Source: a virus (lineage: Duplodnaviria > Heunggongvirae > Uroviricota > Caudoviricetes). Taken from it: a stretch of DNA of 51,026 nt. Below are positions 1 through 9,000 of this stretch, piece by piece (position 1 is the first letter of the stretch; every line of letters begins with the position of its first letter). The stretch is from IMG/VR virus record IMGVR_UViG_2671180890_000005, positions 1-51,026 of that record, one strand, 5' to 3'. The position numbers are program-made.

Positions 1-3000
1 ATGGTTGACAATGTTTTTAAGAAGAAATTGGCATCAATTAAGAACGAACATGTGTCGGTGTTAGATAGTTACAAAGTAAGATCATTTAAAGAGACTCATA
101 GCGACACGGCCTGTATTGTGCGTATTATTGAAATATATTCACTGAATAAGCTGCGAGCTAAAGGTGAAAAGCTGTATTCACTTACGGGGTTAACAGTACC
201 TGATACGGAAACTGTGGCGAATGAGATCAACCTGCTCCTGAGCCGTTATGCCCAGTTGTGTCGTCAGGAAGAGGAAGAGTTATCTTTCCGGCAGCGTGAA
301 GTGACAAATGCGGAAGTTGCATGGAAAAGCACATTCTCAAAAAACGGCGTCAGTAGCATTGCTGAAGCCAAAACGAATAAAATGGGGCATGCTGAACGAG
401 CGGATGCTGAACGGTATTACCATCTGGCTGTTTCCCGGTTGAATGAACAACATAGTCGATTGAGCACGATCAAGCTTTTGCCGGGAGTACTGGCCGATGA
501 AGGAAACTACATTGGGAAGGGAATCGATAAGCGTTTACTGAATATATTTCCTCAATCCGGCCAGATCCCTGCTGATTTTATTTCTGTATTTAATGACAGT
601 GACGTTGTCCGTGATATTAAATTTATTACTGATGCACTCAAGTCTTTATCTGATTCCGTGAGTGAAATTATTAGTCGTTGTAGCGTTCCAACTGATCGTT
701 ATGTATTAAATAACGGTGGAATGGCAAGAGCTATGGCTTACAGGGAGTACTATCGAGCAGATAATTATGTATTACGTTCAGTCGTAAGTGACCGGGATTA
801 TGTTGAGCATGTAATGAAATACAATCTGGTTACTGAGTACAAAAATAAAATCTTTTCTTAAATACTTAAAAAGGTGAAAAACTATGTATGCCTTCAAAAC
901 TGAAAGGCCGGACGCAGCACGTCGTTATCATAATAAATTCGTCACTGGCACTAACTATCAGGAAGAATCAAACAGACGCTTTGCATTAAGCGAACCTACT
1001 GAAAATATACTGCGTACCTCAATTCTGGAATCCGGGTGGCTTATTAAAAATATTACCCTACGTGATGTTAACGCCGTGTCAGGTAATGCCGTCAATATTG
1101 GTGCCAGTGAACTGTATACCGGACGTGTGGATGGTGGCCGTTTCCACAAAAAAATGGCAATCAATGGTACGGAGTTCTTTCTGACAGAGACGGATACCTG
1201 CGCCCGGATCAGCTATTCCGATATGTCTCATATTTACCATACCGGCGTGCCGGATGAGTTTGAGAAAACGGTTGAGAGCTTTTTTGCCCAGGCATATGCG
1301 CTGGACATGCTGCGGGTCGGTTTCAACGGTGTGTCGATTGCAAATACTACAAACCCGGAAATCAATAAAAAAGGCGAGGATGTCAATATTGGCTGGCATG
1401 CACTGGCGAAAGCCTACGGGAACGGAAAGCAAATCATCTCTGAGCCTGTCACTCTGGGAGAGACTGGCACCTGGAAAAATATTGATGCTCTGGCCAACCA
1501 TCTGATTACAGAGCTTATTGCTGAGCAGTTTCGTGAAGATCCTCGTCTGGTTGTACTGGTTGGGGCAGAGCTGGCAGCACATCAACGCCTGAAGTTATTT
1601 AATGCCGCAGACCGCCCGTCTGATGTGAATGCGGCACAGATGGCTACAAGTTCTGTTGCTGGCCGCTTTGCGTTTATTCCCCCGTTTATGCCGGGTAAGC
1701 GTCTGGCAGTAACGACGCTGGATAATCTGCATATTTACACTCAGGCGATAACACGCTGGTTTCGTGCTGAGTTTGATGATGAAAGCAGTGAATACGTGCA
1801 TTCCTACCTGCGCAATGAAGGTTATGCACTCGGTGAACCTGAACTGTACGCGGCTGTTGATGAGTGCACCCTGACGTTTGCGGATTGACTTAGCGACAGA
1901 AAGACCCGCTCAGAGGCGGGTCTCGTTTACAGCATCAGGAAAAATGAAGAACTATTTTTAAGCAGAGGCTTAAGCATGCCAGCGTTAATTAATCCAGGCA
2001 ATGATCAGTTTTCGGTTATAAATTTCTTGCCTCACCAGGAATGCGCGGGATATAGTTTAAAGGTTGCCGCAAAATCGGCAGCCGGGCGTAGGAACCCGTG
2101 TTATCTGAAGGCGATACTACACGCGCTAGGCGTGTTTTTTTGTGTCGCAGCTTTGACTCACCTAAAATTTATGGTGTGGTGGCTGATTGTATTTTTTTAT
2201 TTTTTACGCCACATCATCAGAATTATGGTAGTCCAGGCGGGGCAGCTTTCGGGCTGGCCGGTATCCTTCAGAGCCGGTATTCCTACCCCCGTCTGGGCTA
2301 CCACCCATGAGCGTAGGAACTCCGGTGGTAGCGTTACCCGCTATCTGAAGGAGGTTGCCATTATGGCTACAGTCCCTGCTTTATCTCACCCTGAATTTAC
2401 CTTTGTCTTTCTGGCTGTCCGCCGTACAGACCGTGATGCCCGTCCACGCCCTGTGCGTGTAATCGCAGAATGCGAGCATGCTGCACGCCTTAAACTTGCC
2501 ACTGAATTTATCCTGAGCTTTGCTGCCCGTATCCCTGTGAAAAGAGCCGGGGAGGTGGTTGCATGAAATCCATGAATTTTAAGCAAGGCTGCATATTGAG
2601 TGAACAGGGGGAGAGTCGTCTGTTACGGGCGGCACTGGCCAGTGAGTTTCTTGCAGAGGTCTTGTCCGTGCCCACAGTGAATGGAGCGAGAACTGTTTCA
2701 GCGGAAGGCGCTGCGGCTTTAGTGGCCTGTATTGCCGAACAACTGGATGGCGTTGTTAAGGAAACCAGCACAATTAAGGGAGTGATGCGCGATGAATAAT
2801 AATCAAAATTTAAAGGCGCATGCTTTACGAACAGCAGTCTTACGCTACTACATTGCTGATGCATTCATTTCCTTAATGGTGCGTGTTCATAATGAACCTG
2901 TTTATATTGAAGATGGCGAACGAATAGAACTCTCCCACGAAAAAGTGGTGAGTAATATTATTTACCATATTGAAATGCCGTGGGTGAATGAGTTTGGGGC

Positions 3001-6000: not shown

Positions 6001-9000
6001 AAAAAATGGTGTGTTACCACGCGTTACCTCTTGATTTTGCTAACTGGTAACAGATTAAATCCTTTTAAATCAATAGCGTTACACGTGTTACCAGTGTTAC
6101 ACGTTCAGAACAAGAGGTAGGGATCCAAATCCCTTCTTCTGGCGGGCAACAGTATAGGGCACAGAACGATGAAGATGATGAGAATGTACTGCCCCACATG
6201 TCAGGCAGTAGCACGGATAGGTAAAACAAACAGGAAACACCCACAACTGTACGATGTGTACTGCTATTGCTCTAATGTGGAGTGCGGTCACTCGTTTGTG
6301 ATGAATGTTGCTTTCTCCCATTCCGTTAGTCCAAGCGCGCTGAACGGGCAGGGAAGGGTTAAAGAGCTGATTGATGCAATTCCACCCGAGGAACGGGAAA
6401 AGGCTTTAAAGTTGCTGCTGGCTGCGCAAAAGAATGGGTAAAGTATGCGTCGGGAATGGCCGATCTGTTCCCGGAACCTGAACACAGGATTTCAGTTTAT
6501 ACGGTCATAAAATTATTATTTTTCAACTGGTTATCTTCTTCATGTTTCACAAACCTTCATAAAATCACACACCTAAAATTAATTATCCATTTAATATCAT
6601 AGAGTTGCGTATTCAGGCCATAGATTCGACGGACAGTAAAACTGAAAAAAAATGAATTTCTTTTCATTCTTTTCAGTTCCTGTATCGCAGTACATCTCGA
6701 GGACTGGCACGGACTGGCGGTATCGTTTGTAAAAAATCCAGGCTGAAAATTTTTAGTGATATGAAAACCGCAGGCGGGTGCGGTGTAGTGCCGTTTTGGT
6801 CTGTCGAGCGTATATTTTCCTTTTTCACGATTGCTGCATATCAAAACGAATGTGCAGATATCAGGCCGTGTCAAACCGTGAATCGTGGAGCCTAAATGCC
6901 CAAACTACGTTTGTAGACCTAGCTAGGGGAAGGTTTCCACATATACTGCTACCTATCTTCCAGTCGCTGGTGAGGATCAAGGTAAGCTAACTGGTGAACA
7001 AGAAAAGTACTTTCGTATCTTGCGTACTCGTTTTTTTTGATTAGTATGTACAGGTAGTAACTGGATGGTGAGAATTCGTCATAACTTATCAAATTGCATG
7101 ATGTTTATAGAGTATGAGTAATGAGTCATAATAAAAAGGAATATGCTAAATTTTTCCGTCGCCCCATTTTTTCATCCTTAGCAAAAGGTAAGGATATTTC
7201 GGATTTATTTGGGAGTTTTGATTCTTACTGCTATGAAACACTGTTTTCAAACAATGATAATAATGAACATGAGATTTCACTAAGGGATTTATTTACATCA
7301 TTATATGATTTTTTGCGTCTGAATTATAGAAATGAATATGTTTATAAGACAGCACTTGTCAATAAAATAATATTCGGTAAGCACAGCCCAAAAACAAGTT
7401 CGTCGTCCATAGAGTTACCAATTAAAAACTCTATAGTGGATGTTGCGGTGTTTAATGGTACGTCTACAGCTTACGAGATTAAGACAGAGTATGATTCACC
7501 AAAAAGGTTGATTACTCAAGCCCCTGATTATTTGGATGTTTTTGATAAAGTGTATATAGTTACACATCCAGAGTATGCAAGTAAATATTGTGCTTTAAAT
7601 CTCCCCAGAGTGGGAGTTATGGTTTTGAATAAAAAAGATCAATTGAGTGTCATTAAGGAGGCAGATTCAAATATTGATTATATTAAAAGTGACAGCTTGT
7701 TTTCAGTTCTTAGAAAGGAAGAGTTCTTAGCTATAATAGAAGATTACACTTCAACTAAAATAAATATGCCTAACGGATTGGTTTATGAATATTGTAAAGA
7801 GATATTCATGCAGATGCCATTAAACATAGCAAATAAATACTTTATCTCTGCTATGAAAAAAAGATGTAACGATAAAGTTTTTTTGGATTATATTTATTCT
7901 CTTCCAGCATGTTTACGTGTTTTAGGTTATGCAACACCATTATCAAGAAAGCAAAAAGAATTCATCATGAATTTGATGGATGTAAAAATTAAAATTTGTT
8001 GATATCCTCAGGAGTTGTAAGTTATGTATAGCCCATATTTGTATGCGAGAAGTACAGAGTTATTATGCCTTAGGGACCTCGTTGCGAAGGGAGTTAGCCT
8101 AAATGGTCTGCTACCAATTTTAGAACCAATTAACGTCAATACGAGAAATTTATTAACATGTTTAAATGTTTGGAATTCTGACATAATTGTTATCCTTAAT
8201 CCTTATCAGGAAGATTTTTCTTCACACAATAACGTCTTAACTTTAAATCAAAATTTATCAAGTGTATTAACAAATAAAAATAATATCATCTCTGGATATC
8301 TTATTCAGCCCAATACAACGATTAATGATATTAATAATTGGTTGAATGCTAACTTAAATAGACGAGTTGCACTTCTATATGATAATCCATCATTATCCAA
8401 CTCTGATATTCAGTTGTTGGCGACAAATCAATTGATTAGTTATCATGTTGTTTTAAATAATAAAATGCTTCCTAATCAGTGCGCTCTTCTTCCTTTGTCG
8501 AAGTTAATTATTATTAGCGATAACTTTAGAAAGTTAGCAAAAAATGCTGATTATAATGGGCCGGAACTTTTCACGCACGCACATCAATTCGTGGGACAAA
8601 ATTACTTAGGATTTGGCGATTATACAATTACTGGCCAGGTACTAGATCTTGGAGGTGGTCAACCTTCTGCTGTTGCCGCACATTTGGTGTTCAAGAATTT
8701 ACAAGCGAATACAGTTTGGATTCGTCATTTTGTATCAAGCAACACGCAACGAGGAAGTTCAAATGTTACTGCAAAATTTTTAGATGTTTCAGATCAAATT
8801 ACAAATCTTGTTCCCCAACATCCAACCCAGTTTGGCAGCAACATTGGTCTTAACTATTATTATTACAATAGTCAACCAACTGTAAGGCATTTCCCTGGGT
8901 TGCCAAAAAACAAACAGTATCAAATTACTCACCATATTTGTTTCATGCTGGATTTAATAGCAGGTCGTATTTAATAAGCTAGCGTACCATTCCATCATTA

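Follow-up and report, generated by a model that had tools for sequence, protein, structure and literature searches.

The textbook example of capsid-size piracy is the P2/P4 pair, in which the piracy is effected through an external scaffold, Sid. What, then, should be made of an element that has a P4-type backbone and carries a P2-family major capsid protein (MCP) gene of its own? The question is raised by the left part of the IMG/VR virus record IMGVR_UViG_2671180890_000005, of which positions 1 to 51,026 were analysed; this whole stretch of 51,026 nucleotides is referred to here as the window. An initial annotation had described a satellite-like element at its left end that combines a GpN-like capsid gene and a possible scaffold gene with P4-type replication functions and an Ogr/Delta activator. 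The analysis set out below leads us to regard the element as probably a helper-dependent P4-type satellite whose own MCP serves to build or resize capsids and which is packaged through a cos site of helper type.

The identity of the capsid gene, proposed in the initial annotation, is borne out by profile and structure matches. The gene at 884-1888 (plus strand) encodes a complete P2-family MCP of 334 aa, matching Pfam PF05125 (Phage_cap_P2) with an E-value of 9.5e-67 over profile positions 16-326 of 327, and PHROG 70 (major head protein) at 1.8e-86. Among proteins of known structure it matches a P2-family MCP (PDB 7oz4, 3.6e-21) and gpN of the P4 procapsid (7jw1, 2.7e-16), and its score of 204.6 bits against TIGR01551 falls slightly below the cut-off of 219.65. 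The label "GpN-like" holds at the level of the family and goes no further, since identity to the capsid proteins of P2, 186 and related phages amounts to only about 25%. Its closest phage relative is the MCP of Escherichia phage ESSI2_ev015, a Quadragintavirus (48% identity over 326 of the 334 residues, with 4 gaps), and it is 42% identical to the MCP of Salmonella phage SI7, an Irrigatiovirus.

The satellite MCPs, drawn from the family survey described below, form a single clade with a long stem, nested within phage diversity in a neighbour-joining tree. Their ratios of nonsynonymous to synonymous substitution (dN/dS) are 0.05-0.17, the same as those of phage MCPs and indicative of purifying selection, and 38 alignment columns are invariant across satellite and phage proteins together. 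Seven residues are fixed in the satellites and absent from the phages, and 3 of these fall within the first 52 residues, a segment that is probably the N-terminal arm.

Directly before the satellite MCP gene in all subtypes of the family stands a second conserved gene, open reading frame 1 (ORF1; 1-861, plus strand), which encodes an all-alpha orphan protein of 286 aa. A total of 105 homologues were collected, each of about 288 aa; they diverge about twice as fast as the MCP and show dN/dS values of 0.08-0.27 in most pairs. An exhaustive profile search for remote kin of ORF1 returned only 53 matches, nearly all of them 276-308 aa long or fragments, and none belonged to a known family. The protein may be an assembly or size-determining partner of the MCP, a candidacy for which the sole argument is its fixed position before the capsid gene. 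Just 3' of the MCP stop codon, a GC-rich hairpin with arms GACCCGC and GCGGGTC (1903-1922, plus strand) was read from the sequence and possibly ends an AlpA-ORF1-MCP operon; a terminator scan did not call it, and its T tract is weak.

The boundaries of the element were read in an identical copy in E. coli SA186. Here the full element measures 11,034 bp and is flanked by 20-bp direct repeats, ATGGTGTCCCCTGCAGGAAT, which correspond to the 3' end of argW (tRNA-Arg) and are present at both ends. The SA186 element stands alone, with dsdC on one side and argW on the other, so that core genes flank both ends, and it contains no annotated pseudogenes. As the initial annotation had supposed, the left boundary lies beyond the window, about 745 bp to the left of position 1. 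The leftward extension that it had called for turns up no tail genes: the left arm in SA186 holds only a 75-aa AlpA gene, non-coding DNA and the attachment (att) repeat, after which dsdC begins. The AlpA protein, encoded just left of the window, matches PF05930 (5.2e-20) and is 46% identical to P4 orf88/Vis. About 19 units of a pentanucleotide microsatellite, (CCCAG)n, separate the att repeat from alpA some 550 nt left of position 1; the tract might act as a phase-variable spacer ahead of the alpA-ORF1-MCP operon.

Within the window the satellite occupies 1-10304, all of its genes running in one direction save a single reverse gene for the integrase. Positions 1-10300 recur with 100% identity in many E. 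coli chromosomes, those of JJ1886 and other ST131-type strains among them. The att core at the argW 3' end (10289-10304) marks the right end of the satellite and its junction with a neighbouring prophage, and identity to SA186 stops after its first 16 nt. IMG/VR provirus calls of about 50 kb start exactly at ORF1, and the window is probably one such call in which the satellite has been clipped. The integrase gene (8954-10177, minus strand; 8954-10129 in the shorter form annotated by RefSeq) encodes a tyrosine recombinase with Arm-DNA-bind_3, Phage_int_M and Phage_integrase domains. Its alignment with P4 Int is full-length, with 40% identity over 406 aa; it had been recognized before as P4-type and assigned to an element ending at 6441, a range outside which it lies. 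A strong capsid match inside an att-bounded unit of 11,034 bp thus upholds the original suggestion of a capsid-encoding satellite that is neither a textbook P4 nor a P2 prophage.

How would such an element be packaged? When the whole satellite was compared with helper-type DNA by low-stringency blastn, one non-coding match emerged, in the 680-bp non-coding stretch that follows ogr. This match defines a helper-type cos packaging site at 6639-6818 by its homology to the termini of ESSI2_ev015. Window positions 6639-6781 align with the final 143 nt of the ESSI2_ev015 record at 71-72% identity, including 17 of 17 identical positions (AAACCGCAGGCGGGTGC) at the extreme end, and positions 6785-6818 match the start of that record once 47 nt at its head are set aside. 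These 47 nt of LR597649.1 are not phage sequence; a Nextera transposase adapter, TCGTCGGCAGCGTCAGATGTGTATAAGAGACAG, is found at nt 15-47, and the true left end of the ESSI2_ev015 genome lies at about nt 48. When joined, the two ESSI2_ev015 ends are contiguous within prophages of 43 E. coli genomes, and strain EH09-18-41 has them deep within the prophage, flanked by a cargo gene and the tail genes. Because the joined ends are contiguous inside prophages, the ends of the record are cos ends and not att ends.

In every related satellite the non-coding sequence with the highest conservation is a cos block of about 165 bp. Its invariant core, the 22-mer GCAGGCGGGTGCGGTGTAGTGC at 6770-6791, is kept from Escherichia to Xenorhabdus, being exact in most satellites and differing by a single T/C change in a few of them and in helper prophages; it is also found in at least 120 IMG/VR contigs, many of about 30 kb. 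The 19-mer of the P2/P4 cos, GGCGAGGCGGGGAAAGCAC, is absent from the window even when 3 mismatches are allowed. By this homology, the satellite carries the packaging signal of the ESSI2_ev015-type phage group, placed beside its cargo genes as in P4. The cos site was one of three features missing from the initial annotation, the other two being the region of C4/CI RNA immunity and the cargo of defence genes, both described below.

The same phage group is indicated by the activator gene. Positions 6169-6441 (plus strand) encode a zinc-finger late-gene activator of Ogr/Delta type, 90 aa long (PF04606, 5.1e-14), as first described. It is a single Ogr-type unit, 52% identical to the Ogr of ESSI2_ev015 (E 2e-36), and its match to P4 Delta is marginal (E 0.003), so that its nearest relatives are the Ogr proteins of the helper group and not P4 Delta. 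Because the nearest phage MCP (48%), the Ogr (52%) and the cos site all come from one group, the proposed helper is a Quadragintavirus-type P2-like lineage, for example ESSI2_ev015, and not P2 proper. Both ESSI2_ev015 and SI7 are complete members of the Peduoviridae, 30 kb in length, whose genes run ogr, portal, terL / scaffold, MCP, terS and then tail. The genome of ESSI2_ev015 is 30.5 kb, which gives a satellite-to-helper length ratio (11.0/30.5) of 0.36, compared with 0.35 for P4/P2.

The element is not an isolated curiosity. One genome per species was scanned with an MCP alignment, and the loci were then searched by tblastn with satellite and phage marker proteins. The MCP loci split cleanly into two classes, one with the satellite layout and the other made up of full phages, whose MCPs are 44-52% identical to that of the window. 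The satellite class comprises 21 full-length loci in about 18 genera, with MCPs 50-90% identical to the window protein. Among these genera are Citrobacter, Enterobacter, Franconibacter, Siccibacter, Kosakonia, Phytobacter, Intestinirhabdus and Buttiauxella, together with Erwinia, Brenneria, Yersinia, Pectobacterium, Rahnella, Xenorhabdus and Proteus. The layout (AlpA)-ORF1-MCP, immunity region, primase, Ogr and cos is conserved, and at least two integrase types occur. None of the 21 satellite loci gave a tblastn match to the markers for terminase (terL, terS), portal or sheath.

Three types can be told apart by what surrounds the capsid gene. Type I, to which the window element belongs, has only ORF1 and the MCP and lacks a protease gene. 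Type II (Intestinirhabdus, Buttiauxella) has a longer ORF1 with about 50 aa of extra C-terminal tail. In type III (Pectobacteriaceae, Yersiniaceae, Morganellaceae), a gene directly 3' of the MCP encodes a 173-aa protein that corresponds to the N-terminal serine-protease domain of GpO (PF05929, 1.5e-40; 50% identity to residues 2-124 of ESSI2 GpO). Three residues that never vary in the phage GpO alignment, an Asp, a His and a Ser, are retained in this domain as a candidate catalytic triad. The retention of an MCP beside its maturation protease points to real head assembly and not to a relic. The position of the type III protease domain, right after the MCP, is occupied in type II by an unrelated 108-aa reading frame (10978-11304 of the extracted loci).

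From these observations a life cycle can be proposed for the satellite. It would begin with infection by a Quadragintavirus-type phage or with induction of a resident one, upon which the satellite would excise and replicate from its own origin. The satellite Ogr may then switch on the late genes of the helper, and Ogr and AlpA together would couple the two life cycles. The satellite MCP and ORF1, presumably expressed from the AlpA-ORF1-MCP operon and taking the place of Sid and Psu, would replace or co-assemble with the capsid protein of the helper, which would supply the portal, the GpO scaffold-protease, the head-completion proteins, the tails and lysis. Helper terminase would cut and package satellite DNA at the helper-type cos. 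The resulting small capsids would have room for about a third of a helper genome (11.0 versus 30.5 kb), so that one satellite genome would be accommodated and helper DNA excluded.

A bolder version of this proposal is offered tentatively, as a possibility somewhat less likely than not. Here the element would represent an unnamed and widespread P4-related lineage of Enterobacterales that preys on a distinct branch of P2-like phages; an MCP captured long ago and ORF1, a helical partner protein of a new type, would build T=4 heads around the helper portal with the aid of helper terminase. This would amount to an independent Gram-negative counterpart of the strategy that uses Ccm (see below), and the gradient from "MCP + protease" to "MCP only" would reflect rising dependence on the helper.

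Several results weigh against the proposal that the satellite builds or resizes capsids at the expense of a helper. Induction, packaging and small capsids are attributed to a family that is known here from sequence alone. No homology to GpO scaffolds, Sid or Psu could be detected for ORF1, which had been suggested as a possible scaffold, and hhalign with an ORF1 profile gave probabilities of 0.2% against Sid and 0.1% against Psu; the putative partner of the MCP is therefore without a known assembly-protein relative. The promoters are no more helpful. The element has two copies of TGT-N12-ACA, the late-promoter dyad of P2, each some 55 nt ahead of a gene, alpA in one case and ogr in the other, and the motif was set aside as a candidate; two copies are the chance level for 11 kb, and the sites are not kept in other satellites or in helper phages. 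Helper-type phages share another dyad, TTCGG-N13-CCGAA, in the divergent terL/scaffold promoter region (17095-17256 of ESSI2_ev015, LR597649.1), and further helper-type loci have it at about 8900-9120 of the extracted stretches. This dyad is a candidate for the Ogr operator of the helper group, unlike the P2 TGT-N12-ACA. As a satellite promoter motif it was likewise rejected, being absent from the satellites even with 3 mismatches. Neither dyad is conserved upstream of the satellite operons, and Ogr-dependent control of the satellite is therefore unsupported.

The distribution of the element adds to these difficulties. The ORF1-MCP module is present in 449 of 5,426 complete E. coli genomes (about 8%), mostly ST131-type clinical strains, and 420 of the 449 copies are at least 99% identical, that is, near-clonal; many of the ST131 copies may have been inherited vertically. 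Helper-type terL/portal genes were found in 47 E. coli genomes, a chimeric query giving a union of 491 genomes, and the overlap of satellite and helper type is about 3-4 genomes, against about 3.8 expected by chance. Nor does IMG/VR hold an 11-kb form: no contig of about that length ends at cos and no terminal repeats were seen, the matches being mostly provirus calls from isolate genomes. With an overlap no larger than chance in E. coli, the element would mostly rely on incoming helpers, like P4; alternatively, it may be kept in ST131 for its cargo. In favour of the proposal, 6 genomes in the scan of one genome per species have both a satellite and a helper-type prophage, namely Brenneria populi, Siccibacter colletis, Xenorhabdus vietnamensis, Ca. 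Erwinia dacicola and two metagenome-assembled genomes.

Among the rival explanations, the one that survives best, unlikely as we judge it to be, accepts a cos-packaged satellite and denies the MCP a role in setting capsid size. Multimers of the satellite would be packaged into full-size helper heads, and the MCP and ORF1 would have a different task, for example in helper interference, superinfection exclusion or regulation. There is a precedent, which also counts against the reading favoured here: the capsid homologue c1499 of the island EcCICFT073 is dispensable for both transfer and interference, and the island is carried in full-size capsids (PMC6092414). Three satellite units (33.1 kb) would come near one helper genome (30.5 kb), but they overshoot it by 8%, and the size ratio of 0.36 for a single unit matches that of P4/P2. 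That type I elements have no protease gene also suits a capsid protein with some other task, whereas relatives that pair the MCP with a protease suggest real head assembly. Selection on the satellite MCPs, moreover, equals that on working phage MCPs, down to the 38 invariant columns.

Could the element instead be mainly a fixed defence island? On this account, which we hold to be improbable, the MCP would act as a dominant-negative decoy that poisons P2-like assembly, the cargo genes sce7725/sce7726 would add to the defence, and transfer would be rare or would never occur. The chance-level co-occurrence with helper-type prophages in E. coli, the near-clonal copies in ST131-type genomes, the low-GC cargo of defence type and the want of a packaged form among IMG/VR contigs would all be expected of such an island. 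They must be set against a helper-type cos that is the most conserved non-coding sequence of the family, which is sensible only if the DNA is packaged. The element retains intact att repeats, integrase, AlpA, primase and origin, and the spread over many genera with at least two integrase types argues for mobility.

Two further explanations have little to recommend them. A decayed P2-like prophage remnant beside P4-like genes would account for the Peduoviridae origin of the capsid and Ogr genes, but is very improbable given an 11-kb architecture that recurs in about 20 species without terminase, portal or tail genes, satellite MCPs that form one old clade under purifying selection, and clean att boundaries around an SA186 copy that lacks annotated pseudogenes. 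Equally hard to credit is a capsid-forming island of the cf-PICI type (see below), making complete heads by itself and taking only tails from a helper, for which the MCP and the protease of relatives would speak, since no member has portal, terminase, head-tail adaptor or connector genes and the helper-type cos implies cutting by helper terminase.

The remainder of the satellite is of P4 character, beginning with an immunity region downstream of the MCP, all features of which lie on the plus strand. A promoter-like site at 2027-2056, found in a promoter/terminator scan, is followed by an isrK-type leader RNA with a1/b1 targets (2027-2140, including the promoter-like site) and an intrinsic terminator at 2119-2142. 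Rfam isrK (RF01394) matches 2063-2140 at 68.9 bits, against a gathering score of 50, and c4-a1b1 (RF03163) matches 2050-2102 at 43.8 bits, slightly below its gathering score of 46.7. Next comes a C4/CI-type antisense immunity RNA (2221-2308), a full-length match to RF01695 with 81.1 bits (gathering score 45; E 4.7e-15). Immunity is thus of the C4/CI antisense-RNA type seen in P1, P7 and P4, with the RNA and its upstream a/b targets placed ahead of the primase operon. The translated region around the C4 RNA, annotated as Icd-like, shows 58% identity to the P4 "cI" reading frame, a protein-level match that is understandable in a region that encodes RNAs.

The RefSeq annotation places here a "host cell division inhibitor Icd-like protein" of 196 aa (1976-2566) that runs across both the isrK and the C4 RNA genes. 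The NCBIfam phage_ICD_like domain is limited to residues 141-188 of this frame, and because only its last 50 or so residues carry the domain, the annotated frame is probably over-extended and the true start at 2363, where an ATG preceded by a GGAGG ribosome-binding site opens a short Icd-like frame (2363-2566, plus strand). Two small conserved plus-strand genes adjoin the 5' side of the primase gene and are kept in type I satellites, one for a 78-aa protein (2563-2799; phrog_38507, 5.8e-55) and one for a 136-aa protein (2792-3202; phrog_5991, 8.3e-38). Both belong to PHROGs of unknown function, and neither resembles P4 epsilon, orf151 or orf106.

The primase-helicase gene (3199-5886, plus strand) encodes 895 aa with Zn_Ribbon_Prim, Toprim_3 and DUF927 domains, matches PHROG 1139 (DNA primase) at 4.5e-185, and is 60-92% identical across nearly all related satellites. 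Its description as P4 alpha-like fits the N-terminal part, where residues 1-317 are 38% identical to residues 1-311 of P4 alpha; the helicase part is of the DUF927 kind, does not align, and is not of P4 type. Directly 3' of this gene lies the cluster of iterons that had been proposed as an origin, a view that the repeat counts sustain. In the 180 bp from 5913 to 6092 there are 9 exact copies of GGTAACA, in both orientations and in repeat families D1-D4, making this a putative replication origin. The whole 51-kb window has 18 copies of the motif where 3.6 are expected, and 0 shuffles reached 18.

Between cos and the integrase gene lies the cargo, two plus-strand genes of 31-34% GC: sce7726 (7121-8002; NCBIfam NF033832, 9.6e-52) and sce7725 (8024-8974; NF033831, 1.1e-71). 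In P4-like satellites the segment between cos and int is a hotspot for defence genes, and the gop-beta-cII locus found there protects against lambda and P1 (PMC9122126). The present pair gave one match to a PADLOC candidate model (1.2e-18) and is probably an anti-phage system. RefSeq assigns P4 cII to the sce7726 family, and the window sce7726 is 39% identical to P4 cII over 61 aa; BLASTP found no similarity between sce7725 and P4 beta. Kinship of the pair with the gop-beta-cII defence locus is possible.

The rest of the window, 10305-51026, is a P22/HK620-like prophage in tandem with the satellite at argW. Its genes include those for a portal of 732 aa (32079-34277), a scaffold (34291-35175), a coat protein of 423 aa (35187-36458) and a tailspike-like frame of 981 aa (45656-48601). 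This 40-kb neighbour was considered as a helper and rejected, having a different head-gene layout (portal 732 aa, coat 423 aa) and no cos core. A TorI-type excisionase gene (10378-10578, minus strand) lies at its left end and an integrase gene (49869-51026, minus strand) at its right end; KplE1 likewise has excisionase and integrase at opposite ends at argW, and because of this KplE1-like layout ARAGORN finds no tRNA in the window.

Satellite and neighbour have a 16-nt core, ATGGTGTCCCCTGCAG, in common, and a similar satellite/prophage junction is seen in the ST131 genome of strain 4993. An exact 16-nt copy of a tRNA-Arg T-arm segment, GGAATCGAACCTGCAA, is found at 10598-10613, just upstream of the torI start. 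It lies 293 nt beyond the att core, where the chance expectation is about 2e-5, as if the torI segment had split the 3' half of the tRNA.

How does the satellite compare with the systems already described? Quadragintavirus and Irrigatiovirus phages (ESSI2_ev015, Salmonella SI7) are the source lineage of its MCP, Ogr and cos and the proposed helpers. They have terminase, portal, GpO scaffold, tail, lysis and GpA-type replication genes, all of which the satellite lacks, and of the GpQ-to-L head operon and tail genes of a Peduoviridae prophage it has the capsid gene only. With an isolated candidate helper, ESSI2_ev015, and a defined cos core, the proposal is directly testable. ORF1, a well-folded orphan, could prove to be a new class of capsid-assembly or size factor.

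Among phage-inducible chromosomal islands (PICIs), the Gram-negative members resemble the element in their int-alpA-pri-ori layout, their size of 10-20 kb and their own att sites (PMC6092414, PMC10111431). By the features that define such islands the satellite has int, alpA, a pri-rep gene with a 3' origin, 11,034 bp and its own att (argW), and is free of lysis and tail genes. Capsid-protein homologues are present in 21 of 29 reference PICIs, and PmCI172, which encodes an MCP homologue, forms small heads with a myovirus helper (PMC6092414). Of these capsid homologues only c1499 of EcCICFT073 has been put to the test, with the outcome given above that it can be dispensed with. The E. coli PICIs described so far differ in having lambdoid helpers and in using Rpp or TerS, where the element has Ogr and C4 RNA immunity, and the literature yielded no described PICI with a P2-family MCP and ORF1 or with Peduoviridae helpers. 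The capsid-forming PICIs (cf-PICIs) make and fill small capsids with proteins that are all encoded by themselves, and need the helper only for tails (bioRxiv 10.1101/2022.09.08.507074). Like them, the element has a capsid protein of its own and not only remodelling factors; unlike them, its family has the MCP with or without a protease domain and nothing else of the head, and must borrow portal and terminase.

SaPIbov5 offers the closest functional analogue. Its Ccm is a satellite-encoded capsid homologue that occupies pentamers and forces small T=4 capsids (PMC8569155), and as a cos satellite with a diverged copy of a helper capsid protein it parallels the present element, whose MCP is 48% identical to the helper-type MCP. 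The host of SaPIbov5 is Gram-positive, its helper a siphovirus and its backbone unrelated (Stl repressor, another replicon); the likeness to Ccm in function is a proposed one. A satellite-borne capsid homologue is thus familiar as an idea from Ccm, PmCI172, Gram-negative PICIs and cf-PICIs, and its combination with a P4 backbone, a P2-family MCP and a helper cos was not found described. Surveys of P4-like elements (PMC8628076, PMC10085698, PMC13586616) do not mention capsid genes in them, and no P4-like or PICI element with a P2-family capsid gene was found in the full-text literature, a source that leaves most subscription journals uncovered. Because the family has only 3-4 of the 7 SatelliteFinder core components as scored here (definition in PMC10085698), counts of Enterobacterales satellites are likely to be underestimates.

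It is P4 itself that the element most resembles in plan. Both are of about 11 kb, one third of the helper genome, and both have a tRNA-gene integrase (40% identity), AlpA/Vis (46%), CI/C4 RNA immunity ahead of the primase operon, iterons beside the primase gene, an Ogr/Delta protein and a defence hotspot between cos and int with a gene of the sce7726 family. P4 has a P2-like myovirus as helper and shares its cos, as is proposed for the element. Among the differences, no satellite protein matches Sid, Psu or epsilon by BLASTP, and in their place the element has ORF1 and its own MCP, in a hijack module situated, unlike the gene order of P4, between AlpA and the immunity RNA; it differs further in the DUF927 helicase part, the helper-like Ogr and the Quadragintavirus-type cos. 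If the proposal is correct, related satellites would have solved the problem of capsid-size piracy by means of their own capsid protein where P4 uses Sid, and the two solutions could be compared on one backbone.

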